Shown: positions 11,134-62,885 of the stretch, piece after piece
Layout of the letters: every line of letters begins with the position of its first letter
How positions within the stretch are numbered: position 1 is the stretch's first letter
Assembly: GCA_964606385.1 (NCBI GenBank)
Contig: CAZSFZ010000001.1
Coordinates: 3,519-67,518 of the forward strand
Source of the DNA: an uncultured bacterium
Lineage (GTDB): Bacteria > Omnitrophota > Omnitrophia > Omnitrophales > Aquincolibacteriaceae
Direction of reading: 5' to 3'
Length of the DNA: 64,000 nucleotides
Made by a program: the position numbers and the translations under genes
Notes under the pieces: generated by a model
Databases searched by the model: none
What the model was told of the DNA's origin: nothing
Seen by the model: only the letters and a program-made list of their open reading frames with translations

Positions 11134-11149
11134 GAAAGATCCTCCGGCT

Positions 11150-12605: not shown

Positions 12606-15161
12606 TTAGCTTTTTTCGAACAATTTTTTCCGGTCGAGTTCAAAAACACAGACCCGGGTCCCGCCCGCCAGAGTGCCTTTTTCGATCAGGGGTTTGAAGA
12701 GCGTCATTCCCCGCCCCTGAAGGTAATATAATTGAAAGAGCACGGACCGGATAAGCCGGGCATCCGCGATCACGCTGTAAAAAGCCCCCGCGTCCTCGAT
12801 CAAGAGCACCGAGACCTCCAGGCCGCTGTCCGTGTATTCTTTCTCAATCAACTTGCCCGCGTCCATATAAAAGAAACTCGCCGGATGTCCCGAGAACCCT
12901 TGCCCGGGATTCCCCAGAAAAGCCTCCCCGGCCTTAAGATCAACGCGGGCACCATTCTTGAAGATCACCGTCTCCCCTTCGCGGACCGCCTCCGGGGATA
13001 CGTTCGTGTATTTCAGGAACTCCCCCGAAATGCGCATCATTTCGGAAACATAGCTCATGCCGGCGTCATCGCCCAGGATCCCGAAGATCCCTTTTGAATT
13101 CGACGGCCCTTTTTGGCGCACCGCGAGGGCTTTCCTGAAATCCCAGCGGGCGATCACGCTGACGGCAAGGTTCTGTTCGATCAGATCATTGTAGAGCAGG
13201 ACATAAGACGGCGGCATCCCGCCGCGGCCGTGCGTTTTATCTAAAAGCACATTTTTCTGATCCTCGTTCATGGAGGCCGGCAGCAGCGTAAAGGCCTCTT
13301 GACGGTCCACGCGAACGATCCTGGTGATCAAGTCCACGGCATCCGGAACCTGCATGCCGGATCCCACGAGAAGCTCCAGTGCGTCGTTCCCGCCCAGGTT
13401 GAGCATCCGGAGAATGCCGGCCGCTTCACGCTCGTCTTGCGCCATCAGCGCCCGGGCCATCCAGTAAGTCTCACGAAAATGCTGGGTCCCGCCGTCCGCG
13501 ATCACGGCCCGGCGCGCCACGCCCGTAATGAAATAGCCCGGCGGCCACCAACTGTCGATGATCGCGTCCTCGGGGGTCTTGAGGCGGAGTTCCACGAGCG
13601 CCTCATTCCAGACATCGTCCATGATCGGCGTGATCCCGGTCGAAACCACATGGGCCGAGATCAGGATCATGGGAGAGAACACGAAAAAAACAAAAAGGAT
13701 GGAAAAAAAACGGCTGCCCAGGATCTTTTTAGAAAAGGAGGGTAATTCCAACTTCTTCATAAAAGCTGTCAGGCTTTCGAGAAGGTGTTTCACCGCGAAG
13801 CCCGTAAAGATCGCGAGCGGCAGCACGAAAAGCACCGAAAATCTTTCCGTCTTGAGGGACATAAAAAGGATCGGGATGCTGAAAAAAACCAGGAAGAGAT
13901 ACCTCAAAATCTCTTGCGGATTTTTCCCCCGAAAAGCCCTGACGCCTTCCCAGAGAACGCCCAGAACCGCTAAAGCGAACGTAACATAGTTCCCGGTCAA
14001 GAAGATCAGCTTTTTAAGACCGATCCCGTTCGCTTCGCCCACGGTGAGAAAAATGTTCGGCCAGATATCGAACTTGGCCAGCGCGAAATCGTTCAGGACC
14101 GTCCAACCCGTCCGGATGGAATTGGCAAGACCCGCGGGCGTCAGGAAAAGAGCCAGAAATCCCGTGACGGCGAGCCCATAAATCCCCAAAACCTTCAGCC
14201 CGGATACGGTCACCCCGGAGGATCCCGACCGCCGAAAGAGCGCGAAGACGGCCAGGCTCGCCAAGAGACAGCCCGGGATCAGCACCAGGATGAACGGCCA
14301 CCCGGTCCAGAAAAGCGAGTAAAGCCCCGTTAAAAATGCCGCGATCACGGCACCCCAAACAAAATGCCTTTGAGGCCGGCACAGCCCCCAAAAGAGCGAC
14401 GCGAGGATAAGCATCGGGAAAATGTAATTGTAGGGGTCCGTGTCATACCATCCCAAGGCACTGCGCTGGATAAAGATCGGGGAAAGGGCCACCACCATCA
14501 TCCCGGCCGTGGCGGCCGCAAGCGGAAGGTTCAACACCCGCGATAGAACGACAAAAGATAAAAGAACGATCACGGTCAGCACGAGAGGCACATACGCTAC
14601 CGCTTCCGTAAGCATGATCTTGGGATCCCAAACGCGCATCACTTTGTAGCAGAAAAGCCCGACATACGGATGAAGCGAATAGGCCTCCCAATGGCCGTGC
14701 GGCGCCCGCATCAGCGGCTGAAGGTACTGTCCTCCCCTCTGAGTGTCCGCAATGCGCCCCGTCGTAAGCAGACGTTCCGTCTGATAGAGGTAATGGTAGG
14801 GGTCCGCTTCCAGCAAATAACGGGGTCTGGCGCGGCGCGTCTTTTCAATGCTGTCGGCCATATTTTGGACGGCTTGCCGGTACTGGGCCTGGTCCTCTTT
14901 TTTCAACCGTTCGACCTGTAACGAGACCAGTAAATCCCGTTCCGCGGCCGGGATCTGAGGGAGGTTCTTTTCAAGGGCCTTCTGGATCTGGCTCCGCATG
15001 GATTGGTCCACAGCCTCGCGGGCGAGCGACTGGGAAGAACGGAAAGAAAGCGCCAATCCTCCGTGAAGCATGTAGGTGCGGAAATAGACCGCGCCATAGG
15101 CCATGACAAGGAAAACCAGCGTCCATTTCAAAAGAGGGATCAAACGGTTCCGGATCTGCAT
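12606..15161 (-). CDS. Large GT-C membrane protein, candidate oligosaccharyltransferase (STT3/AglB/PglB-like) or related polyprenol-dependent glycosyltransferase
   Basis: 851 aa: about 13 TM helices plus a large C-terminal soluble domain. First luminal loop has acidic DP motifs (EADPYHYLY, WYDTDPYNY) reminiscent of STT3 EL1. A WW-containing motif DSWWPPGYF sits at the position of WWDYG. Confidence 0.5.
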   Translation of the reverse strand: MQIRNRLIPLLKWTLVFLVMAYGAVYFRTYMLHGGLALSFRSSQSLAREAVDQSMRSQIQKALEKNLPQIPAAERDLLVSLQVERLKKEDQAQYRQAVQNMADSIEKTRRARPRYLLEADPYHYLYQTERLLTTGRIADTQRGGQYLQPLMRAPHGHWEAYSLHPYVGLFCYKVMRVWDPKIMLTEAVAYVPLVLTVIVLLSFVVLSRVLNLPLAAATAGMMVVALSPIFIQRSALGWYDTDPYNYIFPMLILASLFWGLCRPQRHFVWGAVIAAFLTGLYSLFWTGWPFILVLIPGCLLASLAVFALFRRSGSSGVTVSGLKVLGIYGLAVTGFLALFLTPAGLANSIRTGWTVLNDFALAKFDIWPNIFLTVGEANGIGLKKLIFLTGNYVTFALAVLGVLWEGVRAFRGKNPQEILRYLFLVFFSIPILFMSLKTERFSVLFVLPLAIFTGFAVKHLLESLTAFMKKLELPSFSKKILGSRFFSILFVFFVFSPMILISAHVVSTGITPIMDDVWNEALVELRLKTPEDAIIDSWWPPGYFITGVARRAVIADGGTQHFRETYWMARALMAQDEREAAGILRMLNLGGNDALELLVGSGMQVPDAVDLITRIVRVDRQEAFTLLPASMNEDQKNVLLDKTHGRGGMPPSYVLLYNDLIEQNLAVSVIARWDFRKALAVRQKGPSNSKGIFGILGDDAGMSYVSEMMRISGEFLKYTNVSPEAVREGETVIFKNGARVDLKAGEAFLGNPGQGFSGHPASFFYMDAGKLIEKEYTDSGLEVSVLLIEDAGAFYSVIADARLIRSVLFQLYYLQGRGMTLFKPLIEKGTLAGGTRVCVFELDRKKLFEKS

Positions 15162-17700: not shown

Positions 17701-19224
17701 TCAGAATCCCTGCGCCAGCACGCATTCGATCACAAAATCCGCAACATCCTGCTTTCCCTCTTTGCGCGATTGTGTTTCTTTCGTCTCGACCGACCCGAAG
17801 CGGTTGGAATCCCTCAACTGGGTCACAAAGGCGAACACGCGCGACATGGAATTGGCGGTCCCCGTCAAGGTCACGCGGCCTTCACTATCATAATCGACCT
17901 GCGCGAAATAAACGTCATCCCCGACATAATCATTGACGATCTTGAGGACCTGGAGCTCTTTCCCGCGGCTTTCAATCAGCTTTTTGACAATCCGGTTCTT
18001 GGTGGAGATCGACTCCAGCTTTTTGGCGTCTTCATTATATTGGCGGCTCGCCGTCAGGAGCTTTTGATTGACCAGCTTTTTAAAATAAATATTGCTGCCC
18101 ATGATCAGCGTTGTCAGAAAAAAGATGGCCATGATGAGAATACCGAGGCTCATGATGTCCCGGCCGCCTTCCCGGACCTGCTTCTTGATCTTGACCTCGC
18201 GCAAGAGAAGATTGATCTTGGCCTGCGCTTCATAAGCCAGCACCGAAAAAAGCTCAAAAAAGGAAAGCTGGCTTTCCTGATTGACCGCGCGCGTCGCCGC
18301 TTCATTCGCGTGGAAAAAATCCCGGTAATCGAAGGTGACCACTTCGATCTCTTTCACATGCATGCTGCCCGAGCGCCTGAGATCGTCTTCAAGGGTCGGT
18401 AATCCTTCGAGGATCCCCGTCGCGGAGATCAATTGGATCGGTTTTCCGACCCCTTGGTCAGCATACGCCCCGATGGACTTCGTGAGCTCGCTGATAAAAT
18501 CCTCCTTCGCCTGCTTGGCATTGGCACGAAGTGCGTCGGCTCCCACCGGAATATTGCGGACAAAAAGGATCTGCTCGCCTTCGATCACGGTCAGCTCCGA
18601 GTACTCTTCGCTAACATGCAATCCTCCCAAAGCCCCCTGGAGCGTTACCCCCCTTAAGGAATTGACGTAAGTCTTTACCATGCATTCGGATGCAACGACC
18701 ACCTTATCGAGGCTCAGTCCGGCCTGCTCGAAAATGGCCGGAAAGCGTTCGCCGATCTTCCGGTTCACGATAAAAAGCAGGACGCTTGTGTAGTGCTGCG
18801 CCGGAGCTTCCAGACACGAGAAATCGATCACGATCTCGTCGCGCATGTAAGGCGTGAAGCGCCCGGCCTGAAGATCGATGATCTTCGCAATTTCCTCTTT
18901 TTCCGTGGAAGGGATATCGATATTCTTGAAAATGTATTGCTTGGGGGAAATAATGCAAAGGCCTTGAGAGGGAGAGATCTTCTGCTTCTGACAATAAGAG
19001 GCAAGCGCCTGCGCGATCTCGGCATCGCTTTTACTGTCGATCTTTTCGGCGATCACGTTCTCGATCGTGAATTTTCCCTGGCTCGTCCGCCCGCTTCCGA
19101 TCTTGAGATGCTCCGCGCCGAGCGACACCACAAGCGTCACCGGAACGGGCATGAACCTGTCGAGCGGGCTCCCGCCCTTCGCCTTAGCTCCCCCGCCCGA
19201 TTTTTTGGGATCTAGGAGGGACAT
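17701..19224 (-). CDS. GspL-like protein: PilM (actin-like ATPase fold) fused to PilN-like TM/periplasmic domain
   Basis: 507 aa. The N-terminal ~350 aa are PilM-like. Then TM SLGILIMAIFFLTTLIMGS. Then a PilN-like C-terminus. Confidence 0.6.
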   Translation of the reverse strand: MSLLDPKKSGGGAKAKGGSPLDRFMPVPVTLVVSLGAEHLKIGSGRTSQGKFTIENVIAEKIDSKSDAEIAQALASYCQKQKISPSQGLCIISPKQYIFKNIDIPSTEKEEIAKIIDLQAGRFTPYMRDEIVIDFSCLEAPAQHYTSVLLFIVNRKIGERFPAIFEQAGLSLDKVVVASECMVKTYVNSLRGVTLQGALGGLHVSEEYSELTVIEGEQILFVRNIPVGADALRANAKQAKEDFISELTKSIGAYADQGVGKPIQLISATGILEGLPTLEDDLRRSGSMHVKEIEVVTFDYRDFFHANEAATRAVNQESQLSFFELFSVLAYEAQAKINLLLREVKIKKQVREGGRDIMSLGILIMAIFFLTTLIMGSNIYFKKLVNQKLLTASRQYNEDAKKLESISTKNRIVKKLIESRGKELQVLKIVNDYVGDDVYFAQVDYDSEGRVTLTGTANSMSRVFAFVTQLRDSNRFGSVETKETQSRKEGKQDVADFVIECVLAQGF

Positions 19225-20664: not shown

Positions 20665-20671
20665 AGAACCC

Positions 20672-21874
20672 TCACTGGTTAAAAACGATCGCATCAATAC
20701 TGAAAACGGGGAGCAGGATCGCCATGGCGACCAGCCCCAGAAGTAATCCGACGGTCAGGAGCGTTATAGGCTCCACCAATTGCGTCATGACCCGCGTGGA
20801 TTCATCGACCCGCTGGTCATACCAATCGGCAATATCGCGGAACGCCTGTTCCAAATGCCCCGTCTCTTCCCCAATGAGCAGCAAATGGACCGCAAAAAGC
20901 TGGAATCTCCCCGAGCTTTTTAGCGCCCCGCTCAGGGCAGCGCCTTGCTCCACCCGGCGCATCGCGGTCGCAAGGTCCTCCCGCATCGCTTCGTTAGAAA
21001 CCACGGGGACGGCGATCTTGAGGGCCTTCAGGAGAGGGACTCCCCCCTTCAGAAGCATTTCCATGGAGCGGGCAAAAGCGGCGAATTGGGCCATGAAAAC
21101 CATCTTGCCGGCCAGCGGCAGCCCCATCCTCCAGCGGGCCCATCGCACTTTCTGGACGGGACCTTTCGAACGCTTATAGAAAATGATGCCCAGAACCCCC
21201 GCGGCAAGAAGCACGATCAAACCGTAGTGCTGGACCCCGTCGCTAACCAGGATCAAGCCCCGCGTGAGCAGCGGAAGGTCCTGTCCGAACTCTTCGAAGA
21301 GCTTGGAGAACTGTGGCACCACATATGCCAAGAGATAGGCCACGGCAAAAAGGCCCAGCACCGCGACCAGCGAAGGATAGATCAACGCGTTCCGAACTTT
21401 CTGGAGAACGGAAAAACGCCGCTCGTGACATTCCGCCAAACGCGCCAGGGCCTCGTCCAGATGTCCCGTGTTCTCGCCCAATTCGACCATGGCCACCGCA
21501 AAAACATCGAACACAGCAGGATGTTCGCCCAAAGCCGCCGCGAAGGGTTTCCCGTGCCGGACTTCTTCCTTGATCGTTTCGCAGATCGACTGGAGTTTCC
21601 GGTCCTCGGTCTGTTCGGCCGTCACGGTCAGGGCCGCCAGTAGCGGGATCCCGGAGCGGACCAATCGCCCGAGCTGCTGATAGAAAAGCGTCAGCGAACG
21701 GCCACGGACCCCGCCCCCAAAAGGTCCCATTCCCCTTACGCCTTCTTCACGGACCTGGACGGGAAGCAGGTTCATTTCATGGATCTTGTCGACCGCCGCC
21801 GCATGCGACTCGGCCGACAGGATCCCTTTGATGAGTTCCTTGCCTTTTTTGGCTTCGTACTTGAATTTTTTCAT
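20672..21874 (-). CDS. gspF: T2SS/T4P inner-membrane platform protein GspF/PilC
   Basis: 400 aa. Two GspF repeat domains and three TM segments. N-terminus FKYEAKKGKELIKG... Confidence 0.85.
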   Translation of the reverse strand: MKKFKYEAKKGKELIKGILSAESHAAAVDKIHEMNLLPVQVREEGVRGMGPFGGGVRGRSLTLFYQQLGRLVRSGIPLLAALTVTAEQTEDRKLQSICETIKEEVRHGKPFAAALGEHPAVFDVFAVAMVELGENTGHLDEALARLAECHERRFSVLQKVRNALIYPSLVAVLGLFAVAYLLAYVVPQFSKLFEEFGQDLPLLTRGLILVSDGVQHYGLIVLLAAGVLGIIFYKRSKGPVQKVRWARWRMGLPLAGKMVFMAQFAAFARSMEMLLKGGVPLLKALKIAVPVVSNEAMREDLATAMRRVEQGAALSGALKSSGRFQLFAVHLLLIGEETGHLEQAFRDIADWYDQRVDESTRVMTQLVEPITLLTVGLLLGLVAMAILLPVFSIDAIVFNQ

Positions 21875-21880
21875 CGGATC

Positions 21881-24226
21881 TTATTCACCAGATTTCATAT
21901 GCGTTTGGCAGAATTTTTCAAGCCGCGCGCGATCGATGCTATTGAGCACAAGAAACAAGGTCGCTACGGAAAGTTCCTCTCCCGAAAGCCCTAAGCGTGA
22001 GATGCGAAGCGCCTTGGCCATGCATTCAACGGGCTTCACACCATCGGAAAGACCGATCCTGAGCAGAAGAACGCTGCCGGCCTCCAGCACCTCTCCGATC
22101 TTAAGGGCCGCTCCCGGAATCACTCCGGCAGGCAACGGCTGGTCAAAGATCTTCAGCAAGATCCCGCCGGCACTGATATTTTCCGTAGAACCGGCCAAGG
22201 GGATCTCCGCGAGCTTTTCTTTGTATTTTTGGACCAAAGGCGATTTCGCGTGGCTTTCAATGATACGGAACGAAACAGGAGCTTCGAGCTGGATCCGCTG
22301 GTACTTGCGCATATTCACAAATTCGTGGTCGGACGCGGTTTTTTCCGCAGGAGTTTCGGAAAGATCGACCGGCGGGATGGCCGGTTTGAGCTCAGGCATC
22401 TCAGCCGCTTTGTCCGCCTCCAGGGTCCTCAAAAAACCGCTTTCGGGTGCTGCCGCAGGGGGCTTCGGATTTTCCGGGACCACGGAAGGAGCCATCGGCT
22501 TACTGTAGTTCAACTCCTCATGTTCCGTAACTTCAAGGATCTCCTCGGGGGTCGTGATCCCGGCAAGGACCTTCGACCAACCGTCCCGGCGAAGCGTGAC
22601 CATCCCCTGCTGGATCGCCAGGGATTTGATCGCTTCCGCGGTGGCGCGCGCCATGATCAATTTACGGAGAGGCTCGGTCAGGATGATGAGCTCTTGGATT
22701 GCAATGCGCCCCCGGTATCCCGTCCCGTTGCACTGTTCGCAGCCGCGCCCGTGAAGGATCCGGATCTCTTTTTGAGGAACACCGCTTTCCTTTTCAATAA
22801 GGCTTTTAATCTCGGAAGAAACGCCGGGGTTTTCCTCACGGCAGTGCGGGCAGATGACACGGACAAGCCGCTGGGCCATAAAAGCCACCACGCTTGACGC
22901 GATCAAATAAGGCTCCACGCCGATGTCCAGGAGCCGGGTCACGCCGCTTGCCGCATCATTTGTGTGAAGCGTGGAAAGGATCAAGTGCCCCGTCAATGCC
23001 GACTGGATCGCGATCTCGGCCGTTTCGAGATCCCGCACCTCCCCCACCATCATGACATCCGGGTCCTGCCGGAGCATGCTCCGCAGCCCGTTCGCGAACG
23101 TCAGCCCGATCTCGGGGTTCACATGGATCTGGCTGACGCCTTCAAGTTCATATTCCACAGGATCTTCGATCGTGATAATCTTCCGCGTGGGGACATTGAG
23201 GCGGTTCAGGGCAGCATACAGGGTCGTACTCTTCCCGCTCCCTGTCGGACCCGTGACGAACACGATCCCGTTCGTCCGGTTCAAAAGTTCTTCAAAGACC
23301 GCCTGCTGTTTCGGGTCAAAACCCAGTTTCTCGAGCTTGAAGACATTCTTGCCGGGCAGGATGCGGATCACCAAACTCTCCCCGTGCGCCGTCGGGATGA
23401 AGGAAACACGCAGGTCGAGGGTCTCATCCTGGGTCTTCACCCTCATCTTGCCGTCCTGGGGAAGCCTTTTCTCGGCCACATTCAGATTGGTCATGATCTT
23501 GATACGGGACAGCATCGGAGAGAAAAACTCCTTCATTTCGCGCGGAACCGGCGCCTGCTGCAAAATACCGTCGATCCGGTAGCGAAGGCGGATCCCCGAG
23601 GTCAGAGGTTCAAGATGGATGTCGCTCGCACGTTTTTTGTAGGCGTCCAGAATAATCTGGTTCACCACATGCGAGACTGAGGCCGTGGAAGCGAGTTTTT
23701 CGATATCTTCTACTTCCTGAACGGGCGCCGAAGCCGAAGGCCGTTCATTCGCCGGGGTCACGGCAAGGATCTTGTCCACGGTCTCCGCGGCAAGGCCGTA
23801 ATGCTTCACGAGCATCTCTTCGATGTCCTTCTCCAGGGCGAAGCAAAGCTCGATATCGGTCCCCAACGCGAAACGCATCTCATCCAGAGTATGAATGTCG
23901 GGGATCCTGTGGACCGCGATCACGATCTTTCCGTTCTTCTGCTGGACCGGAAAAAATTTATAATAGGAAGCGAATTTCACGGGGACATTCTTGAAAACCT
24001 CGGGATCCGGCGCGGTCGTCTTGAGATTGATGACCGGCCGTCCCGTATTCTTGGAAAAAATATCGAGCAGTTGTTCTTCCGTAAGAAGGCCGGCATCGAT
24101 CACGACACGCAGGAACGGACTCGAATTCTGTTCGGCCTCCCGAAAAGCTTTCTCAAGCGCCTCTTTTGGGACGGCGCCTGACTCAAGAAGGATCTTGAAT
24201 GAGTTTTTGTCCAAAACGGGTTTCAT
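21881..24226 (-). CDS. gspE: T2SS/T4P assembly ATPase GspE/PilB with C-terminal PilZ (c-di-GMP-binding) domain
   Basis: Walker A GPTGSGKSTTL. Asp/His boxes. Tetracysteine CPHC...CEQC. After a Pro-rich linker comes a C-terminal ~110-aa domain with PilZ motifs RKYQR (RxxxR) and ENISAGG (D/NxSxGG). 781 aa. Confidence 0.85.
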   Translation of the reverse strand: MKPVLDKNSFKILLESGAVPKEALEKAFREAEQNSSPFLRVVIDAGLLTEEQLLDIFSKNTGRPVINLKTTAPDPEVFKNVPVKFASYYKFFPVQQKNGKIVIAVHRIPDIHTLDEMRFALGTDIELCFALEKDIEEMLVKHYGLAAETVDKILAVTPANERPSASAPVQEVEDIEKLASTASVSHVVNQIILDAYKKRASDIHLEPLTSGIRLRYRIDGILQQAPVPREMKEFFSPMLSRIKIMTNLNVAEKRLPQDGKMRVKTQDETLDLRVSFIPTAHGESLVIRILPGKNVFKLEKLGFDPKQQAVFEELLNRTNGIVFVTGPTGSGKSTTLYAALNRLNVPTRKIITIEDPVEYELEGVSQIHVNPEIGLTFANGLRSMLRQDPDVMMVGEVRDLETAEIAIQSALTGHLILSTLHTNDAASGVTRLLDIGVEPYLIASSVVAFMAQRLVRVICPHCREENPGVSSEIKSLIEKESGVPQKEIRILHGRGCEQCNGTGYRGRIAIQELIILTEPLRKLIMARATAEAIKSLAIQQGMVTLRRDGWSKVLAGITTPEEILEVTEHEELNYSKPMAPSVVPENPKPPAAAPESGFLRTLEADKAAEMPELKPAIPPVDLSETPAEKTASDHEFVNMRKYQRIQLEAPVSFRIIESHAKSPLVQKYKEKLAEIPLAGSTENISAGGILLKIFDQPLPAGVIPGAALKIGEVLEAGSVLLLRIGLSDGVKPVECMAKALRISRLGLSGEELSVATLFLVLNSIDRARLEKFCQTHMKSGE

Positions 24227-25683
24227 ATGCTGACACGGCTTTTCTTTTTAGGAGTTCTCCCGATCAGGTAGAAATCGCTGGCGGGAAGCTTGTCGAAAAC
24301 CCCGCTCACGATCGCCTCGCAATCATCAACCGCGTCCGAGACCGCCACGAATTCCCCTTTTCTTCCCGTGAACGCTTCGCCGACCGTGAACGGCTGGGTC
24401 ATGAAATTAAGGAGCTTCTCGGCGCGTCTGAAGTCGATCTGGTCCTCTTTCGGCAGCTCCTCCACGCCCACCACCTGGACGATGCGCTTCAAGGAATTGT
24501 GCTTCGCGAAAAGCGCGAGCATCTTCTGGCTCAGGTTATACGCCTTCTGTCCGACGATACGGGGGTCCAGGTTCGCGCAGCCGCTCTTGAGCGGGTCGAT
24601 CGCGGGATAAAAACCCTTCTGGGCGAGGTCGCGCGAAAGCGACAGGGCGCCGTCCAGACAGCTGAAGATCGCCACGACCGCGGGGTCGGTCATATCGTCG
24701 GAAGGCACGTAAACGGCCTGCAGGGAGGTGATCGAGCCGCGGCCGGGGATCGACCGGATCCTTTCCTGTACTGAATTAACCTCGGATTGGAGGGTCGGCT
24801 GATAGCCGGATTCCCCTGGGACGCGCCCGAGAAGCGCCGAGATCTCCTGACCTCCCTGAATAAAACGAAACACATTATCCATGAACAGGAGCACGTCCTT
24901 GTTCTGTTCGGCCATATCTTCCGCGAGCGTAATCCCGGTGTTCACGCACTCATAACGCGCGCCCGGCGGCTCATTCATCTGACCGAACACCAGCTTGACC
25001 TTCGGCAACAGGTTATTTTCTTTCAGTTCCGCGAAAAGGTCGTAACCTTCGCGGATGCGTTCCCCGATACCCGTAAAAATACAAACCCCACTGTGTTTCT
25101 TGACGATATTATTGATCAGTTCGAGGATAACGACGCTCTTGCCGCAGCCGGCACCACCCAGAATCCCCATTTTACTCCCCTTGCAAAGCGGGAAAAGCAG
25201 GTCGATGTACTTGATCCCGGTCTCAAGGAATTCGGGTTTGGCACCGAACTTGCTTTTCAGGTTGAATTGTTCCTCGCGGGGCGGCCGCCGGATGACCTTG
25301 AAATCCTTTCCCGTGAACGCCCCCAACTGATCGATCGGATCCCCGAACACATTGATGATCCTCCCGAAAAGCTCGTCCCCTGTGCGGATCGTGACCGGCT
25401 TCATGGTGTTGATCACCTTGGAATTAAGCTGAAGGTTCAGGGTCTCGGATAGAGAGATGCAGCGGACATCGTTCTTGCTTAAGTGCTCGGCGACTTCCAT
25501 CACGACCTTGCGTTTGTCGAACGTTTGTCCCACCAGCACGTCAAAAAGGGCCGGAAGATCGCTGATCTTGTCAAAGGTCACATCGACCACGGGACCGCGG
25601 ACACCGATGATCCTCCCTTGGACGTTCTTGGTGAACGCCGCTTCCATCGGGGTTTTTTCTGTGCTTTTTATTTCTTCATCCAT
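24223..25683 (-). CDS. atpD: F-type ATPase beta subunit
   Basis: GGAGCGKSVVILELINN...GIGERIREGYDLF, LLFMDNVFRFIQGGQEISALLGRVP, SITSLQAVYVPSDDMTDPA are collinear with F1-beta. Confidence 0.9.
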   Translation of the reverse strand: MDEEIKSTEKTPMEAAFTKNVQGRIIGVRGPVVDVTFDKISDLPALFDVLVGQTFDKRKVVMEVAEHLSKNDVRCISLSETLNLQLNSKVINTMKPVTIRTGDELFGRIINVFGDPIDQLGAFTGKDFKVIRRPPREEQFNLKSKFGAKPEFLETGIKYIDLLFPLCKGSKMGILGGAGCGKSVVILELINNIVKKHSGVCIFTGIGERIREGYDLFAELKENNLLPKVKLVFGQMNEPPGARYECVNTGITLAEDMAEQNKDVLLFMDNVFRFIQGGQEISALLGRVPGESGYQPTLQSEVNSVQERIRSIPGRGSITSLQAVYVPSDDMTDPAVVAIFSCLDGALSLSRDLAQKGFYPAIDPLKSGCANLDPRIVGQKAYNLSQKMLALFAKHNSLKRIVQVVGVEELPKEDQIDFRRAEKLLNFMTQPFTVGEAFTGRKGEFVAVSDAVDDCEAIVSGVFDKLPASDFYLIGRTPKKKSRVSI

Positions 25684-26585
25684 TAGCGTGTTTTCCTCGT
25701 TGATGCAAAACTGGCCGCCGTAAAAACCTCACGCACCGCCTTATTCAACTCTTCGCGCAACCCCTTCCTGAAAGAGATCAGAAGGCTCCGCCGTTCCGTG
25801 CCCAGCGATTCCAGAGCAGATTCCAGCTGCTGGGCCTGGATCGCCGCCTCCGTGAGCGGAATATCGTCCACGATCTCGTAAAGACGGCAATAGATCCAGA
25901 TGCCGGCGATCGTTCTCATGATGGAATTCCCGGACGTTTCAAGGATCACGTCAAACCTTCGTTGATCGTCCGCGACCTGGTCCTCATCCCCTTGCGTGAT
26001 ATCCCCGCCCCGGGTCCGGACCAGCTCGCCGGCCGGAAGCAAGGTCAGGATACGGGGTTTGATGACGGCAAAGCTCTTCGCCCACACGTGAACCAGGATC
26101 GTTTTGCCCGCCTGCCCGTTCATGATCCGTTCCGTCAGATAATCGCGAAGATAATGCGAAAGATCAAAGCGGTTCGGGAACTCCCCGAGCGTCAGGACCT
26201 TCTCGATCCGTTCCACCCCCATCATTTTCAGCATGGTCGCGCAGCGTCTTCCCAGGCAGATCACGCTCGAACCCGGGTATTTGATGTACTGTTGATGCGC
26301 GATCGCCGTGACCTTGGAATTCATCTGCGACATAAACGACTGGTCGGAAGCCAGCACTACAATATCCACCCCTGGATGGTCGTTCCTCAGTAACGGACAT
26401 GTGGTATTAATGTTCTTTACAGTTTCCAGAAATTCCAAAAACGCGTCAAAGAACCTTTGAAGGTTCTTCTTTTTCGCTGAAAACGCGAAAAAACGGCTTG
26501 TGGCGACGTCCTTGATAACCGAAATGATCTCTAACAGCGTATCAACATCATCCAAATCGCCTTTGATCCGTGTGACCTTGCTCAT
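25683..26585 (-). CDS. atpG: Putative F-type ATPase gamma subunit (divergent)
   Basis: 300 aa, in the gamma slot before beta. N-terminal helix ISVIKDVATSRFFAFSAKK resembles gamma ITKAMEMVAASKMRK. Otherwise divergent. Confidence 0.45.
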   Translation of the reverse strand: MSKVTRIKGDLDDVDTLLEIISVIKDVATSRFFAFSAKKKNLQRFFDAFLEFLETVKNINTTCPLLRNDHPGVDIVVLASDQSFMSQMNSKVTAIAHQQYIKYPGSSVICLGRRCATMLKMMGVERIEKVLTLGEFPNRFDLSHYLRDYLTERIMNGQAGKTILVHVWAKSFAVIKPRILTLLPAGELVRTRGGDITQGDEDQVADDQRRFDVILETSGNSIMRTIAGIWIYCRLYEIVDDIPLTEAAIQAQQLESALESLGTERRSLLISFRKGLREELNKAVREVFTAASFASTRKTR

Positions 26586-26597
26586 GCGCGACGGCCT

Positions 26598-27338
26598 TTA
26601 GGCCTGGAACTCCAATTTCTCTTTCATTTTCACGGACGATTCATTGACCGCATTGGCAAAACTCCCGTCCAAAAGAAGCGTTCCCATCTGCAGCACCACC
26701 CCGGCGATCAAGGGGATCTCCACGCTTGTTTCGATCTTGAGATCGGGCACATTCAGCTTCTGGCCCAGGATGCTTCGGAATTCATCTTTTTCTATCTGGT
26801 TCAAAGGGAACGCCGAACGGATCACCGGCGGGTTTTCTTTAACATCGACGGCGCTAAAGTCCGCCTTGGAGATCTCCTTGATGAAATCTTTCACGAATTG
26901 GGCATGAAGGAGCAGCGTGGCCTCAGGCGAAAAGATCGACTTCAGCATTTCGGCCGTAAAATCGATGACCTGCCGGCTCACCTCGGTCCGGATTTCACGG
27001 CTCAACTGGTCCCGTGACCCGTAAGCCTTGGAAATGATATCCTCCGCCTCCGTTCTCGCTTTTTTGACGATCTCCTCTTCCTTCTTGCGGGCTTTTTCAA
27101 GGGCCTGATTGGAAAGTTTGTCGGCGATCAGAGCCGCTTCTTCTTTCTTGGCCTGAAATTCTTTCTCCGCCATCTCATTCTTTTCGAGAAGCTCGCGCTG
27201 TTTCTTGACGAGTTCCTCATAGACGGAGCTCAGCCTCCGGACATTCGACTCCGTATCCCCGGACATCATTTTTCTCATGAAAAACACGAGCACGCAAAAA
27301 ACGATGATCTGTAAAAGCACGAATTGCAGTGTCAGCAT
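26598..27338 (-). CDS. F-type ATPase peripheral-stalk protein: b-like (TM plus coiled coil) with delta/OSCP-like C-terminal segment
   Basis: N-terminal TM LLQIIVFCVLVFF. Long K/E-rich helix. C-terminus ...IPLIAGVVLQMGTLLLDGSFANAV resembles the delta C-terminus. Confidence 0.5.
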   Translation of the reverse strand: MLTLQFVLLQIIVFCVLVFFMRKMMSGDTESNVRRLSSVYEELVKKQRELLEKNEMAEKEFQAKKEEAALIADKLSNQALEKARKKEEEIVKKARTEAEDIISKAYGSRDQLSREIRTEVSRQVIDFTAEMLKSIFSPEATLLLHAQFVKDFIKEISKADFSAVDVKENPPVIRSAFPLNQIEKDEFRSILGQKLNVPDLKIETSVEIPLIAGVVLQMGTLLLDGSFANAVNESSVKMKEKLEFQA

Positions 27339-27350
27339 AACGCTCCTTTT

Positions 27351-27581
27351 TTAAATAACCGATTTTGGCATAAAGATCTGAAAAGTGATGAGCAGGGAAA
27401 TGATCGAGGTCGCTTCCGCAAAGAGCAACATCAGGATCACGCCCAGATAGATCTTGGGCGCCGCCGAGGGGTTCCGGCCTAGTGCCTTAATACTGGCCGC
27501 TCCCACGACCGCAATCACGATCGAAGGGCCGACCACCGCGATGAACATGGCTATCAGGACCGCGACATTCTGTTGGTTCAT
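27351..27581 (-). CDS. atpE: F-type ATPase c subunit (proteolipid)
   Basis: 76 aa, two-TM hairpin with polar loop GRNPSAAPK and carboxylate E in helix 2 (LLFAEATSIISL). Confidence 0.75.
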   Translation of the reverse strand: MNQQNVAVLIAMFIAVVGPSIVIAVVGAASIKALGRNPSAAPKIYLGVILMLLFAEATSIISLLITFQIFMPKSVI

Positions 27582-27597
27582 AGGACCTTTCCTTTTT

Positions 27598-27876
27598 TTA
27601 GATATCCCACGATTCTTTCATGCCTTTAAAACTCGTGTCGACCTCCACGATCATGTAACAGCGGTTCTCGCGGAAGCTTACGACCCCCAGCCGGATCGGG
27701 ATGCTCGGATGATCGGCGATCTTAATGTCGCCTTCCACCAGCGTCGACACCAGCGGGTGGTGAAAAGCCAAAAGTTCGAACTCCCCTTCCTCGCTGGCCA
27801 AATAGACCGATTCGACCATATCATCAAATACCAAGCCCTGCAAACTTAAGACTTGCAGCTGGAACTTTGGCTTCAT
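27598..27876 (-). CDS. atpC: F-type ATPase epsilon subunit, beta-sandwich domain only (no C-terminal helical hairpin)
   Basis: 92 aa. FELLAFHHPLVSTLVEGDIKI matches epsilon G.E.GILPGH.PLLT.L..G. Confidence 0.6.
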   Translation of the reverse strand: MKPKFQLQVLSLQGLVFDDMVESVYLASEEGEFELLAFHHPLVSTLVEGDIKIADHPSIPIRLGVVSFRENRCYMIVEVDTSFKGMKESWDI

Positions 27877-27885
27877 GCGCGGCCG

Positions 27886-29388
27886 CTATTCAGCTTCCGC
27901 GACGGCAGCCGTCACAGCCGTCTCACGCTTTGCCCGCTTCTTCACAATCACCAAAAGCTCGTGAACGATCCGTGAGATGCGGCTTTTGATCTCGTCATTC
28001 AGGTCCTTGGTCTCACGGATCATGGTCAAAAGCTCCGGCTCTTCTCTTTGAACATGCGCCTGAAACTCCGCCAGGAATTCCTGCACTTGGGCAAGCGTGA
28101 GGTCCTTGAACATTTGTTCGTTTTTCGCGTAAAAAAGCATGACCTGGAATTCGACCGGCACGGGACTGCTGGCCGGCTGGGTCAGGAGGGCCTGAAGAAT
28201 CTTCCCCGCTTCCAGGCTCTTTCGGGCCTCTTCCGATTGGGTCGATGCCTGTAATTTGCTCACGCGCAGCAGTTCTTTGAACTGGATGAATTCCATGCGG
28301 GTTGAGCGGGAAACCGCCTTCGTCGCCTTCCATTGCACTTTACTTCCGACACGGGAAACCGAAAGACCCACGTCAACGGCCGGGCGGAACCCTTCATTAA
28401 AAAGAGAGGCGTTCAGGTACAACTGACCGTCCGTCATGGACACCAGGTTCGTGGGAATATAAGAGGTCAGGTCCCCCTCCAGAAGTTCCACCACCGGAAT
28501 AAAGGTCATGGACCCGCCACCGAGCTTTTTGTTGAGCTGCGCGGCTCTTTCGATCATACGCGAATGAAGAAAGAAAATATCCCCGGGATAGGAGTCGCGG
28601 CCCGGAGGCATTCCCATCATCAGCGACAGTTCTCGGTAGGCCCACGCGTGTTTGGTGAAATCATCAAAAAAAACAAAAACATCCTTTTTCTTGTACATGA
28701 AATATTCCCCGAGCGAACACGCCGCGTAGGGCGCCAGGTATTGCAGCCCGGGAGAGCTCGATGCGGGCGCCGACAGGATGATCGTATGCCCGAAACAATC
28801 ATGCTCTTTTAAAAGATCGATAAGCTTGACCATGGCAGAAAATGTTTTCCCGATCCCGCAATAGATGCAAACAACATCTTTGCCCTTTTGGTTGATGATA
28901 ATGTCCGTCCCGATGGTGGTCTTCCCGGTCATTTTATCCCCCAGGATGAGGGAACGCTGGCCTTTCCCTAAAGGCAGCATCATATCGATCAGTTTGATCC
29001 CGGTCTCGAAAGTCCGGGAGAGACTTTCACGGTCCATAATGGCGGGAGCGGCATTAAAGTAAGGGATGTAACTTTCAAATTCGATGGGCCCCATGCCGTC
29101 CATGGATTCGCCCAGGGGATTCAGGATCCGCCCCAAGGCTTTGGCCCCCACAGGCATGTGAAAGGGTTCGATGCTGGCAACGACGCGGTTGCCGGGGGTG
29201 ATCGGCTCATGCTCCTTGATGAGCAGGACTTGGGCCATATTCATATCAAAACCCATGATGATCCCTTCGGTCCCATAGCCGAAATGGACAAGCTGACCGA
29301 GAAAGCAATTCTGAAGACCGAGCACCTGCGCGATGCAGCCGCTCACGGTCTTCACGATCCCATTCTCTTTGTAATGCAGTTCAACCAT
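27886..29388 (-). CDS. atpA: F-type ATPase alpha subunit
   Basis: GDKMTGKTTIGTDIIINQKG (P-loop), LAPYAACSLGEYF, IPTNLVSMTDGQLYLNASLFNEGFRPAVDVGLSVSRVGS are collinear with F1-alpha. Confidence 0.9.
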   Translation of the reverse strand: MVELHYKENGIVKTVSGCIAQVLGLQNCFLGQLVHFGYGTEGIIMGFDMNMAQVLLIKEHEPITPGNRVVASIEPFHMPVGAKALGRILNPLGESMDGMGPIEFESYIPYFNAAPAIMDRESLSRTFETGIKLIDMMLPLGKGQRSLILGDKMTGKTTIGTDIIINQKGKDVVCIYCGIGKTFSAMVKLIDLLKEHDCFGHTIILSAPASSSPGLQYLAPYAACSLGEYFMYKKKDVFVFFDDFTKHAWAYRELSLMMGMPPGRDSYPGDIFFLHSRMIERAAQLNKKLGGGSMTFIPVVELLEGDLTSYIPTNLVSMTDGQLYLNASLFNEGFRPAVDVGLSVSRVGSKVQWKATKAVSRSTRMEFIQFKELLRVSKLQASTQSEEARKSLEAGKILQALLTQPASSPVPVEFQVMLFYAKNEQMFKDLTLAQVQEFLAEFQAHVQREEPELLTMIRETKDLNDEIKSRISRIVHELLVIVKKRAKRETAVTAAVAEAE

Positions 29389-56945: not shown

Positions 56946-56952
56946 TTTTTTC

Positions 56953-57630
56953 CTAACGCAGTTCAACCCGATCCTCGCCCAGCGAAAGCACCACATGTTC
57001 TTCGTTGATCTTCGCGACCTTCAAAAGCCCGATCGGATCTCCTTCCCGCAAGAACGTCGTGATCCCTTTTTGGACATCTTCGATCATGCAGTAAACCTTG
57101 CTTGGATCCGTCGGGTTGTAGGAGATCCCGGTCAGCTTCAAGGTTTTTGTCATCTCCACAAGTTTGGTCGATTGCTCTTTTTCGAGCTTCTGAGCTTCTT
57201 CCGCGCGCTTGCTGTACGGCATGAACATCTTGCCGAGGTCCCAACTTTCGACCGGCTCTGTTTCCTTTGCCATCTCGCTGACCGGCGGGGGTTCCAGCAT
57301 CTTCGGTTCCAAGGTCCCGATCGAACCCACGACGTCTTTTTGGAGACCCGCAACCCCGAGCAACAGATCCGCCATGAACACCAGCCCCAGCACGACCACC
57401 AGATAGCGAAGGATCCGGTTCAGTTCTTTAATGCCGAACGAGGACTTGATCCGTTCAAACAGCTCGGTCGAAGCGTTCAGGAACTTCTCGGCCCACAGCC
57501 TCGGATCGAACTGTCCCGCCTGCTGGACTTTCTTGGCTCCCGCCGCTATATCTTTTTGATAAGCGCTCGGTTCCTCGATCAGATCAAGAAGCCGCTTCTC
57601 CGGCGTTAATGAGGAATCTGGCTGAGCCAT
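56953..57630 (-). CDS. GspC/PilP-like inner-membrane secretin-interacting protein
   Basis: One TM (LRYLVVVLGLVFMADLLLGVAGL) after a cytoplasmic N-terminus. Periplasmic C-terminal beta domain. Sits between ExeA and the secretin. Confidence 0.4.
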   Translation of the reverse strand: MAQPDSSLTPEKRLLDLIEEPSAYQKDIAAGAKKVQQAGQFDPRLWAEKFLNASTELFERIKSSFGIKELNRILRYLVVVLGLVFMADLLLGVAGLQKDVVGSIGTLEPKMLEPPPVSEMAKETEPVESWDLGKMFMPYSKRAEEAQKLEKEQSTKLVEMTKTLKLTGISYNPTDPSKVYCMIEDVQKGITTFLREGDPIGLLKVAKINEEHVVLSLGEDRVELR

Positions 57631-61027: not shown

Positions 61028-61031
61028 ACGC

Positions 61032-62236: not shown

Positions 62237-62242
62237 CGTACC

Positions 62243-62839: not shown

Positions 62840-62885
62840 ATGAACGATCCTCCTTGATGATCGGGTGGAGAAAAAGAACGCGCGT

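Follow-up and report, generated by a model that had tools for sequence, protein, structure and literature searches.

Why should a set of F-type ATPase genes without a gene for subunit a stand between the gene of a giant surface protein and the genes of a secretion machine? This arrangement was found in an Omnitrophota bacterium, in the window analysed here, that is, the whole 64-kb stretch of DNA. A non-respiratory 'symbiotic' F-type ATPase adjoining pilus genes across Omnitrophota was described by Seymour et al. 2023 (Nat Microbiol, PMC10066038), on the basis of alpha/beta phylogeny, in which the symbiotic clade is separate from the respiratory one, and of co-location within 10 kb. A role in host attachment or motility was proposed there, with a gliding motor as the analogy. 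The accessible part of that paper also places alpha in a cluster with Mycoplasma Type 2/3 and notes that giant ORFs occur in genomes with the symbiotic ATPase. The present locus is from the same phylum and likewise has an F-type ATPase beside GspE/PilB-GspF/PilC-pilin genes; as those loci are presented in the accessible part, it belongs to them. Is the ATPase then an ordinary ion-translocating enzyme, or does it work for its neighbours?

Gene content of the locus

Six contiguous minus-strand ORFs fill positions 24223-29388 exactly, and all six are assigned by Pfam above the gathering score (Table 1). Their order is alpha-epsilon-c-b/delta-gamma-beta. The ATPase genes are separated by gaps of 8-16 nt or overlap, the start of gspE overlaps the stop of beta by 4 nt, and no excess of internal promoter-like or terminator-like sites was seen in the ATPase locus of the window. 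The ATPase is an integral block of an operon which also encodes a T2SS/type-IV-pilus-like machine, a giant repeat surface protein and a 466-residue protein, u466. The canonical atp order is a-c-b-delta-alpha-gamma-beta-epsilon. That of the N-ATPase is atpDCQRBEFAG (PMC2881411), and the window order matches neither. The initial annotation had described an F-type gene set in such an unusual order, with a c-proteolipid, a compact b-delta-like stalk and a short epsilon lacking its regulatory helices, placed between the giant gene and the T2SS genes. The description holds throughout, with the addition that u466 separates the giant gene from alpha.

Table 1. Features of the ATPase locus and its surroundings (window positions)
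Feature	Coordinates	Strand	Evidence
GspK-like minor pseudopilin	10078..11301	-	Pfam T2SSK_1st 78.8 bits
STT3/PglB-type oligosaccharyltransferase	12606..15161	-	Pfam STT3
PilM-PilN fusion, inner-membrane assembly component	17701..19224	-	Pfam PilM_2 + PilN
GspG-like major and two minor pseudopilins	20212-20697, 19759-20211, 19212-19811	-	Pfam T2SSG, N_methyl, T2SSJ
GspF/PilC platform protein	20672..21874	-	Pfam T2SSF 192.7 bits
GspE/PilB-type secretion ATPase	21881..24226	-	Pfam T2SSE 432.6 bits, MshEN 62.1 bits
F1 beta, catalytic, 486 aa	24223..25683	-	Pfam ATP-synt_ab 226.5 bits
gamma, 300 aa, strongly diverged	25683..26585	-	Pfam ATP-synt 62.3 bits
Fused b/delta peripheral stalk, 246 aa	26598..27338	-	Pfam ATP-synt_B at 8-130 + OSCP at 171-233
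c subunit, 76-aa hairpin	27351..27581	-	Pfam ATP-synt_C 33.8 bits
epsilon, 92 aa	27598..27876	-	Pfam ATP-synt_DE_N at residues 5-78
F1 alpha, non-catalytic, 500 aa	27886..29388	-	Pfam ATP-synt_ab 233.7 bits + ATP-synt_ab_C
u466, 466 aa	29397..30797	-	between giant gene and alpha, 8 nt upstream of alpha
Giant protein, 7170 aa	30862..52374	-	ORF; about 500 tandem 13-residue AGVNWSDLNVLSK repeats
Secretin, GspD/PilQ type, upstream of giant gene	55200..56996	-	Pfam Secretin 157.9 bits, Secretin_N

The subunits of the head are close to the canonical ones. Alpha scores 509 bits against the NCBIfam atpA model (cut-off 484) and beta 508 bits against atpD (cut-off 463); both reach 400-450 bits against solved F1 structures, and public records annotate them as F0F1 ATP synthase subunits. 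The P-loop of alpha is GDKMTGKT at 150-157 and its Arg finger is R346 in GLSVSRVG. Beta carries the Walker A motif GGAGCGKS at 176-183, the catalytic GIGERIREG at 205-213, DNVFRF and YVPSDDMTDPA. Among sequences of the window family, the Walker A motif and GIGER[IV]RE of beta are conserved in 64/64 and the Arg finger of alpha in 61/61. The residues which the initial annotation had singled out for checking, namely the beta P-loop, the catalytic Glu and the alpha Arg finger, are therefore intact family-wide, and the F1 head (alpha3beta3) is predicted to be catalytically competent.

In the rotor and stalk, gamma, epsilon, c and b/delta all score far under the NCBIfam equivalog cut-offs. Gamma has no PDB match by phmmer. 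Epsilon consists of the beta-sandwich domain, its C-terminal helices being missing. The c subunit, whose ion-binding site had also been proposed for checking, carries a membrane Glu56 and an R36-N37-P38 loop; all 56 distinct sequences of the window family keep this Glu and the RNPSAA loop unchanged. In canonical c-rings a polar RQP loop contacts gamma/epsilon, and we take the RNPSAA loop to be its counterpart. Within the window family the conservation of c (53-71%) is about equal to that of alpha/beta (52-74%), and that of gamma, b/delta and u466 is 28-43%. The b/delta protein has an N-terminal TM helix and a coiled coil followed by the C-terminal part of delta only, the OSCP match covering profile positions 105-167 of 172; among NCBIfam models it fits that of the N-ATPase subunit b best, over the full length at 49 bits, below the cut-off. 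Alpha lacks about 20 N-terminal residues (the PDB alignment begins at canonical residue ~23-34), which in canonical enzymes bind delta. Because the whole family is without the delta N-domain and without the alpha N-terminus that would bind delta, the stator appears to be remodelled.

On the secretion side, GspE has an N-terminal MshEN domain and a C-terminal PilZ-like domain, the latter weak in the window and clear in relatives. The PilM-PilN fusion is also conserved in related loci, and STT3 is conserved downstream in L001-L003, L007, L011 and L012.

Subunit a is absent from the locus

Could subunit a be hidden nearby? The initial annotation had found none in the 38-kb operon, and the search can be widened: the whole 64-kb window has no Pfam ATP-synt_A match. 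Polytopic ORFs were also sought by a hydropathy scan in all six frames. Those with a Pfam identity are two PMT_2 glycosyltransferases, STT3, DUF2304 and GspF. A 10-TM protein encoded on the other strand matches nothing in Pfam; what else the scan picked up lies antisense to the giant gene or to u466, apart from a single protein with a TPM domain. Nor did the TM helices of u466 and b/delta show an Arg or Lys that is conserved, and so no replacement stator was identified there.

Conservation of the locus in Omnitrophota

Is this arrangement a peculiarity of one genome? For comparison, 72 related Omnitrophota loci from at least 60 species were collected. All 72 are collinear, with the order giant, u466 (~460 aa), alpha, (epsilon), c, (c'), b/delta, gamma, beta, GspE, GspF, and the span from u466 to gspE is covered whole in 53 of them. 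No a-like polytopic gene lies within +/-10 kb in any of the 72, and the epsilon gene is missing entirely from 8. A sister Omnitrophota family, deeply diverged (alpha 43-48% identical to the window family), has the order epsilon-c-b/delta-alpha-gamma-beta, again between the giant gene and GspE and with catalytic motifs intact. It too lacks subunit a. Taken over both families, with their two gene orders, none of about 80 loci encodes this subunit. In three distinct sister-family loci (L073/75, L078 and L079) the Glu of c is replaced by Gln, and this is the only c gene found at each locus; one c' paralogue likewise has Gln.

The giant protein and u466 are part of the same pattern. The spacing from NW to NW in the giant protein is 13 residues in 499/510 cases, the protein has a conserved C-terminal domain, and the same repeat type and C-terminal domain are encoded upstream of u466 in related loci. 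u466 has a signal peptide, two tandem modules of a beta-sandwich and a helical bundle, and a C-terminal TM helix. It matches no Pfam or NCBIfam family, and its AlphaFold2 model (pLDDT 84) has no PDB match in fold. Its homologues form 93 clusters; the six named by the source are all MAGs, five from Omnitrophota/Omnitrophica and one from Geobacteraceae. In the sister family giant proteins end in a single fused u466 module with its TM anchor, which connects anchor and giant protein directly beside the ATPase. From these features u466 is predicted to be a bitopic anchor protein and a conserved partner of the ATPase.

Comparison with known systems

The initial annotation had pointed to the Mycoplasma gliding motor as a precedent. 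The Type 2 G1-ATPase (M. mobile gliding) and the Type 3 ATPase are likewise F1-derived alpha/beta/gamma/epsilon assemblies without subunit a, linked genetically to large surface proteins, and there too the neighbour of alpha encodes a signal-peptide protein with C-terminal TM helices. The alpha of the Type 3 'F1-like X0' enzyme also lacks the N-terminal delta-binding helix, and this ATPase (MIB-MIP system) is needed for surface function (PMC12994834). However, the Mycoplasma systems lack c and b/delta, which the window keeps; Type 3 has a 12-TM protein where the window has these two, and the partner machinery here is T2SS/T4P-like in a diderm. By profile scores alone, alpha and beta show no specific affinity to Mycoplasma Type 2/3: they fail the NCBIfam models of both families (391/600, 410/850, 274/520 and 369/570 bits) and score higher against canonical atpA/atpD. 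The precedent is therefore useful as an analogy and does not extend to membership.

The N-ATPase, also an accessory F-type ATPase with non-canonical gene order, lacks delta as a subunit of its own, and the C-terminal end of its long subunit b can be aligned with delta (PMC2881411, Dibrova et al. 2010). It differs in having subunit a, AtpQ, AtpR and Na+-binding c subunits, none of which is in the window; further genes would not fit into the 8-16 nt that separate the ATPase genes. The scores against the alt_F1F0 models are 478 and 453 bits (cut-offs about 750). Canonical F1Fo is closest in alpha/beta, in all catalytic motifs and in the c hairpin with mid-membrane Glu, whereas the window lacks subunit a, the delta N-domain and the alpha N-terminus, has a truncated epsilon (absent in some relatives) and embeds the genes in a secretion operon. 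To our knowledge, FliH-FliI-FliJ is the only well-studied F1-related ATPase with a b/delta-like stalk and a gamma-like protein on an export machine, but it is a homo-hexamer without a c-ring and serves a T3SS, while the window encodes a hetero-hexameric F1 with a c-ring and a T2SS-like link.

The words 'subunit a' do not occur in the main text of PMC10066038 as accessible, and no report was found in that part of c and b/delta retention, a c' paralogue, epsilon loss, Glu-to-Gln c variants, the u466 anchor module or the position of the ATPase directly beside the giant gene. Within that scope, four features seem not to have been described before: the lack of subunit a, the c-ring that is kept, the change of Glu to Gln, and the anchor module fused to giant proteins.

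What does the ATPase do?

We give about even chances to an ATP-hydrolysing F1/c-ring motor which would serve the secretion machine and the giant protein and would not be chemiosmotic, a reading drawn from sequence comparison. Beside synteny and catalytic motifs, it is favoured by the tight packing of the ATPase genes up to gspE, by the u466 anchor fused to giant proteins and by the remodelled stator, and the role proposed by Seymour et al. 2023 agrees with it. Three points stand against it. The invariant Glu and high conservation of c would be expected if c formed a working ion-binding ring opposite a stator that bears an Arg; an ordinary F1Fo would keep a b/delta stalk and a c-ring just as well; and no replacement stator was identified in u466 or b/delta. 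Might the enzyme then be a complete ion-translocating F1Fo, a pump or synthase that takes subunit a from an orphan atpB or a respiratory operon and energises the membrane for secretion? Glu56 and its neighbouring residues are invariant in the window family, c is under strong constraint, gamma and epsilon are kept along with the c-ring and b/delta, alpha and beta exceed the canonical cut-offs, and atpB genes are scattered in other bacteria, e.g. Helicobacter pylori. Some Omnitrophota also have a respiratory F-type ATPase, according to the accessible part of PMC10066038. Yet subunit a alone is missing at about 80 loci where the other subunits stay clustered, and three of these have Gln for the carboxylate. 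At 33.8 bits to Pfam, c is so diverged that a respiratory a would be an unlikely partner. A recognisable gamma is present in 30-35 of 176 complete Omnitrophota genomes and alpha/beta in 125, which implies that in most genomes there is no other canonical operon from which subunit a could come, and in one published genome table F-type alpha and beta appear without K02108, which divergence could hide. A borrowed subunit a is thus unlikely, though worth weighing. The initial annotation had offered it beside an F1-derived motor; of the two, the motor is better supported, by synteny in 72 loci and the sister family, intact catalysis and the loss of the c carboxylate.

Another explanation is that the F1-like head is an accessory secretion ATPase like FliH-FliI-FliJ, unfolding or feeding the giant substrate or activating an export gate, with the c-ring and b/delta as a static membrane dock and no working rotor. 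FliH/YscL have a b-like N-terminus and a delta-like C-terminus, as b/delta has, and b/delta weakly matches the NCBIfam HrpE/YscL model (E = 5e-4); alpha and beta score 160-199 bits against the FliI/SctN models (NCBIfam), epsilon is dispensable in 8 loci, and some relatives have lost the c carboxylate. This is nevertheless rather improbable, as a hetero-hexamer with non-catalytic alpha and a full-length gamma typifies rotary F1 and not homo-hexameric export ATPases, the invariance of the RNPSAA loop speaks for a rotor interface that has been conserved, and a dedicated ATPase, GspE, is already encoded. That a housekeeping ATP synthase lies beside secretion genes by chance is very improbable. In its favour, alpha and beta carry the F0F1 ATP synthase annotation and pass the canonical thresholds, but synteny and subunit content contradict it: subunit a is not at the locus, the other four subunits fall far under the equivalog cut-offs, about 80 loci all place the ATPase between the giant gene and gspE, and the symbiotic clade is set apart from the respiratory one in the accessible part of PMC10066038.

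How, then, would a motor of the F1/c-ring kind work? The alpha3beta3 head with the diverged gamma and truncated epsilon would sit on the c-ring, held by one fused b/delta stalk. We infer that the enzyme would run in the direction of ATP hydrolysis and that this would drive rotation of gamma, epsilon and the c-ring against alpha3beta3-b/delta. Such a motor would neither pump ions nor make ATP. Rotation would instead perform mechanical work on the apparatus that secretes or anchors the giant protein, and candidates for the membrane partner that would receive the torque are u466, GspF and PilMN.

Results

Six ATPase genes and a missing subunit a

The stretch 24223-29388 holds six adjoining minus-strand ORFs, all of which exceed the Pfam gathering score (see table). 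The alpha, beta and c subunits, the short epsilon and the compact b/delta stalk named in the initial annotation are borne out by these matches, with epsilon consisting of the beta-sandwich domain only, and the 466-aa gene between the giant gene and alpha (u466) is added to its list. Within the set, neighbouring genes are separated by 8-16 nt, except that gamma overlaps beta by 1 nt; beta in turn shares 4 nt with gspE. Promoter- or terminator-like sites in the region 19.5-31.5 kb show no excess over shuffled sequence. Given the small gaps and overlaps and this lack of excess, these genes look like one transcription unit.

Main features of the window; lengths refer to encoded proteins
Feature	Coordinates	Strand	Length (aa)	Domains and remarks
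10-TM protein	6943-8370	+		No Pfam match
GspE/PilB-type ATPase	21881-24226	-		MshEN N-terminal and PilZ C-terminal, also in homologues
ATPase gene set	24223-29388	-		Six ORFs below
alpha		-	500	ATP-synt_ab and ATP-synt_ab_C (Pfam)
epsilon		-	92	Beta-sandwich domain alone, residues 5-78 (Pfam)
c		-	76	ATP-synt_C (Pfam)
b/delta		-	246	ATP-synt_B 8-130 and C-terminal delta/OSCP part, profile positions 105-167 of 172 (Pfam)
gamma		-	300	Pfam match above gathering score
beta		-	486	Pfam match above gathering score
u466	29397-30797		466	Between giant gene and alpha
Giant protein	30862-52374	-	7170	13-residue repeats
ORFs antisense to giant gene	31340-50352	+	up to 2526	For example 38648-46228
4-alpha-glucanotransferase	58615-60453			
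Unrelated neighbours	60485-63997	-		Contain the two features below
LemA/TPM-domain cluster	61032-62839			
ShlB/FhaC-type two-partner-secretion transporter	62951-63997	-		Cut by window end

Is there a subunit a? By Pfam and a six-frame hydropathy scan, no match to ATP-synt_A (PF00119) exists anywhere in the 64-kb window, in agreement with the initial annotation, and none was found in the 72 + 10 related loci with flanks of up to +/-10 kb. The polytopic proteins that the two methods reveal in the window are two PMT_2 glycosyltransferases, STT3, DUF2304, GspF and one 10-TM protein; what remains of the hydropathy hits lies antisense to the giant gene or u466, apart from one TPM-domain protein. Could the subunit be hidden among such ORFs? 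In the 72 loci and the window together they are glycosyltransferases, STT3, DUF2304, GspF, one 10-TM protein and antisense artefacts in the repeat gene. None of them matches ATP-synt_A, and a subunit a hidden in the window or these loci was rejected. The antisense ORFs opposite the giant gene are very long, yet Pfam matches none of them; they arise from the codon structure of the repeat and should not count as genes. Hydrophobic antisense ORFs are also present in related loci.

Conservation of the arrangement

The nearest homologues of beta, at 61-96% identity and in at least 120 clusters, are Candidatus Omnitrophota in all cases where the source supplies a name. Twelve loci were obtained from contig look-ups of five of these homologues, 60 more by scanning GTDB species genomes with a gamma alignment, and the resulting 72 loci were annotated with HMMs from six lineages. 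All are from Omnitrophota MAGs, one of them on the 3.36-Mb chromosome OY759724.1. Some are titled "uncultured Planctomycetales bacterium" (L040, L043, L044, L046, L050-L052, L056, L058, L061, L063, L065 and L071); they have the typical Omnitrophota layout with a gamma 31-36% identical to that of the window, and are probably mislabelled Omnitrophota.

Every locus, to its contig limits, has the same order: u466, alpha, (epsilon), c, (x), b/delta, gamma, beta, GspE, GspF, ..., PilMN, where x is an extra hairpin gene. The run from u466 to GspE is complete in 53 loci, and beta followed by GspE is present in 63. Two apparent deviations are ORFs stretched to an upstream start codon, as gene calls show for L002; the other, L020, has a 330-aa b/delta ORF as in L002. 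Three sub-architectures can be told apart: epsilon and c, as in the window; c without epsilon (8 loci); and epsilon, c and a hairpin x of 71-124 aa (31 loci). Where the epsilon gene is absent (L011, L012, L027, L031-L034, L037), alpha is followed directly by c, with a gap of 21 nt in L011. Epsilon is therefore dispensable in the system.

In nearly every case a long ORF that runs off the contig end lies upstream of u466, and these ORFs carry G[VI]NW 13-residue repeats and a C-terminal domain as in the giant protein of the window. Most contigs of L013-L072 start or stop inside this repeat gene. Evidently this is where short-read assemblies break, and both the length of the giant genes and their upstream linkage are systematically under-recorded as a result.

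The F1 head

Over their full length, alpha and beta can be aligned with solved structures of canonical F1, scoring 350-450 bits; for beta, the score is 400-438 bits against canonical F1 beta and 325 against Mycoplasma mobile G1 beta (9io5_A). Their reading as F1 subunits holds, since both pass the equivalog cut-offs for atpA (TIGR00962, 509 bits, cut-off 484) and atpD (TIGR01039, 508 bits, cut-off 463), and in four clades they lie just above the canonical cut-offs and below the N-ATPase and Mycoplasma models of NCBIfam. Checking of the catalytic residues, which the initial annotation had proposed, found Walker A, the catalytic motif and the alpha Arg finger all in place. The beta of the window has Walker A GGAGCGKS at 176-183, the catalytic GIGERIREG at 205-213, DNVFRF and YVPSDDMTDPA, and Walker A and GIGER[IV]RE are kept in 64/64 family sequences. 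Alpha has the P-loop GDKMTGKT, and its Arg finger, R346 in GLSVSRVG, is kept in 61/61.

Compared with canonical alpha, that of the window begins about 20 residues later: the P-loop is found at residue 150, against about 169 in canonical enzymes; two ordinary alphas from our searches (P0225 and P0229) have it at 169. Among the 61 family alphas examined, 59 have a recognisable P-loop motif, which has this early position in 49 and lies within 10 residues of it in 8 more. The later start therefore leaves no helix for binding the delta N-domain, and this domain is also absent from b/delta according to Pfam.

Stalk, gamma and c ring

The other subunits are strongly diverged. Their NCBIfam scores against the cut-offs are 37.9/194 bits for gamma, 39.4/67 for epsilon, at most 30.7/124 for c, 25.7/65.5 for b and 25.4/57.5 for delta, and gamma is so diverged that phmmer found no solved structure for it. 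Between clades, gamma, b/delta and u466 are 28-43% identical, while c (53-71%) is as conserved as alpha and beta. The 56 distinct c sequences share an invariant RNPSAA loop, F-x-E-A-x-S and Q-x-F. As to the ion-binding site, another check proposed earlier, the carboxylate (Glu56 in the window) is invariant in 56/56 sequences of the family. Neither u466 nor b/delta was found to have a conserved Arg or Lys in its TM helices.

What is the hairpin x? By hhalign it is a paralogue of c, with its Glu matched to that of c (probability 98.1%, E = 1e-13); we call it c', and its candidacy as a replacement stator was rejected. Pfam does not recognise it. It lies between c and b/delta in one clade (L004:6286-6531, L009:5275-5571 and 29 other loci) and has conserved motifs of its own: PC in helix 1, a PSKTPAIQ loop and Glu in helix 2, this Glu being Gln in one c'. 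These motifs suggest a ring that may be heteromeric.

A sister family with another gene order

When a representative library was searched with alpha, the best match (P0214, 43% identity) was a member of a second large Omnitrophota alpha family; the other top matches were ordinary or oddly long alphas with uninformative names. A metagenome scan with the gamma of this sister family gave 5 loci only, and ten loci of the family were examined. In these the genes run: giant protein, epsilon, c, b/delta, alpha, gamma, beta, (small MshEN protein), GspE-PilZ, GspF, pseudopilins, GspK, PilMN. Here too the ATPase has a giant gene on one side and GspE on the other, and none of the ten loci contains a subunit a. 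The alphas of the two families are only 43-48% identical. Two diverged families with unlike gene orders thus have the position in common and both lack the subunit, which speaks for an old and maintained channel-less state and an equally old and maintained tie to the secretion/giant-protein system.

The c subunit of the sister family keeps Glu in four loci. In three distinct loci (L073/L075, L078 and L079) it has Gln instead, in a helix that is conserved apart from this residue (LVFAQTLAII), and this is the only c subunit found in the locus (for example L073:8970-9188). From what is established on F-ATPase biochemistry, a ring whose sole c lacks the carboxylate cannot translocate ions. The catalytic motifs of alpha and beta are intact in the sister family, the Gln-type loci included.

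The u466 module and the giant protein

No Pfam or NCBIfam family matches u466. Its homologues form 93 clusters, of which six have source-given names, all MAGs: five Omnitrophota/Omnitrophica and one Geobacteraceae. An AlphaFold2 model from a 68-sequence alignment (pLDDT 84, pTM 0.63) has an N-terminal signal/TM helix, two tandem modules of beta-sandwich and helical bundle, and a C-terminal TM helix at 402-434; Foldseek found nothing significant for this fold in the PDB. In the sister family, the giant protein itself ends in a single u466-type module with a TM helix; the u466 HMM scores about 120 bits there in L073, L075, L078 and L079, and the module can be seen by eye in L081 and L082; L080 has it as a separate 268-aa protein. 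Through this fusion the module is linked to the giant protein, whose membrane anchor comes to lie beside the ATPase genes. Since the module is fused in some loci and separate in others, the anchor is either its own gene or the giant's C-terminus.

The giant protein of the window is made almost entirely of 13-residue repeats with the consensus AGVNWSDLNVLSK. NW occurs 511 times, with a distance of exactly 13 residues in 499 of the 510 spacings, and 52% of the repeats contain an N-W-S/T sequon. Near its gene are an STT3/PglB-type oligosaccharyltransferase, GT2 and PMT_2 glycosyltransferases, and STT3 is kept in related loci. The sequon-rich repeats and these neighbouring genes suggest that the protein may be a heavily N-glycosylated surface filament. 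The giants of the sister family (L073:1-8658, L081:1-8416, L082:1-8809) are not of GVNW type, with 15 NW in 2886 aa.

The surrounding operon

Along the minus strand, 5' to 3', the genes of the window are: ExeA-like AAA protein, secretin, TPR protein, FGE-sulfatase-like protein, giant protein, u466, the six ATPase genes, GspE (MshEN and PilZ-like), GspF, GspG-like pseudopilin and minor pseudopilins, PilM-PilN fusion, weakly PilO-like protein, second TPR protein, STT3, GT2 glycosyltransferase and GspK-like protein. Of T2SS-type parts the window has secretin, GspE, GspF, GspG, a T2SSJ-like protein and GspK, with the place of GspL/M taken by the PilM-PilN fusion and the weak PilO-like match; GspC and PilT were not seen in the window. 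GspE scores 584/630 bits to type_II_gspE and 554/676 to PilB in NCBIfam. MshEN and PilZ are known c-di-GMP-binding modules. Since GspE carries both, and the sister family has an additional stand-alone MshEN protein between beta and GspE, the domain content points to possible c-di-GMP control of the machine.

Discussion

How does this ATPase compare with the known ones? With canonical F1Fo it shares the alpha/beta equivalogs and the helix-2 carboxylate of c. Canonical F1Fo, however, has a PF00119 subunit a with the stator Arg, normally beside c, which is lacking here in the window and 82 loci, and a separate full-length delta; here the delta N-domain is absent and gamma, epsilon, c and b/delta fall under their equivalog cut-offs. 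N-ATPases have the order atpDCQRBEFAG, with AtpR, AtpQ and subunit a, and a long b with delta-like C-terminus in place of a separate delta (PMC2881411). The latter trait recurs here, as ATP-synt_B and the OSCP C-terminal part are in one protein. As the initial annotation had stated, the order differs: alpha-epsilon-c-b/delta-gamma-beta, with no extra genes and gaps of at most 16 nt. The alt_F1F0 models of alpha, beta and b are not reached (478/750, 453/752 and 49/225 bits), and by order, missing AtpR, AtpQ and a, and these scores, N-ATPase membership was rejected. Mycoplasma Type 3 ATPases lack a, b, c and delta, have unrelated membrane partners such as a 12-TM protein, and their alpha lacks the N-terminal helix (PMC12994834). 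The parallel with Mycoplasma drawn earlier is an analogy, to which this alpha truncation adds a shared trait. It does not extend to membership in Type 2/3, since the models MMOB1660/1670 and MSC_0619/0618 are not reached (391/600, 410/850, 274/520 and 369/570 bits), canonical models score higher, and c and b/delta, unlike in Mycoplasma, are present.

Loci of this kind have been described. According to Seymour et al. 2023 (PMC10066038), ATPase/pilus loci occur in every Omnitrophota class, both gene sets lie within 10 kb on 57/66 contigs, and alpha clusters with Mycoplasma Type 2/3 ATPases. The kind is therefore already known. By the definition of that study (alpha/beta within 10 kb of T4P/T2SS genes in an Omnitrophota genome) the window, with beta overlapping gspE, is a further member, whose anatomy adds detail. 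The giant-gene preprint of West-Roberts et al. (10.1101/2023.11.21.568195) makes no mention of ATP synthase. A 2026 preprint (10.64898/2026.06.07.730766) reports T2SS/pilus genes beside giant genes, F-type alpha/beta in 125/176 complete genomes with recognisable gamma in 30-35, F1Fo as "incomplete", and V/A-type subunits as common in class Gorgyraeia; of the F-type subunits it gives alpha, beta and gamma only. None of these three sources mentions, in its searchable text, that subunit a is missing, that the c-ring and b/delta are kept, that c' and the Gln-bearing c variants exist, that the giant gene is directly adjacent, or that there is a u466 module.

There is a further question of concern: what does an F-type ATPase do without its channel? 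In our view the chances are about even that it is an ATP-hydrolysing F1/c-ring motor, built into the secretion/giant-protein apparatus as a module and not chemiosmotic. Such a motor working with the flanking machinery was already proposed in the initial annotation; the subunit composition, the synteny in two families, the catalytic conservation, the fusion and the loss of the carboxylate in a sublineage now support it better, and as an idea it is neither proven nor new. These features are observed, whereas that the enzyme works by hydrolysis, that it rotates and what accepts its torque we infer. Against the motor stands the c subunit of the window's own family, which is strongly constrained and never varies at Glu56; nor was any Arg-bearing membrane partner found in the operon. 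A more specific version is conceivable but rather doubtful: a phylum-specific and widespread rotary machine would use its F1 head to turn a channel-less c-ring, and the bitopic anchor module (u466 or the giant C-terminus) or the T2SS/T4P platform would receive the torque within the membrane, so that giant glycosylated surface filaments are extruded, put under tension or moved on host cells.

The same invariance and constraint speak for the chief rival, an ion-translocating enzyme whose subunit a is encoded elsewhere in the genome, which we regard as unlikely. In the accessible part of a published KO table, one of two alpha-bearing genomes has K02111 and K02112 without K02108; this is weak evidence against it, because the diverged c, gamma and b of the system also escape KOfam. 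Quite improbable is a third reading, in which the c-ring and stalk would be a static dock for an accessory ATPase, as in the FliH-FliI-FliJ complex. A housekeeping ATP synthase in a chance position is effectively excluded, both the housekeeping synthase and the chance juxtaposition being rejected.

Rotary F-type ATPases are textbook chemiosmotic enzymes, and the known exceptions are, to our knowledge, two F1-like systems of Mycoplasma that drive gliding and antibody evasion. Omnitrophota are ultra-small, probably predatory or parasitic bacteria. The initial observation is real and robust. This phylum keeps an F1 head, c-ring and stalk without the ion channel, between giant-protein and secretion/pilus genes. 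Metabolic reconstructions that score alpha and beta as "ATP synthase present" mis-score Omnitrophota with such loci. The system is phylum-wide and mechanistically puzzling, and would surprise specialists on rotary ATPases, even if already flagged in the literature. If the phylum-specific rotary machine is real, an F-type c-ring would here serve a mechanical purpose that has nothing to do with chemiosmosis, unlike the Mycoplasma motors, which have no c-ring. If the ATPase is a mechanical motor, F-ATPase rotation would have been recruited independently a second time for work at the cell surface, here with its membrane rotor kept, and this would give a handle on how proteins of 7,000 to >80,000 residues are exported or operated.
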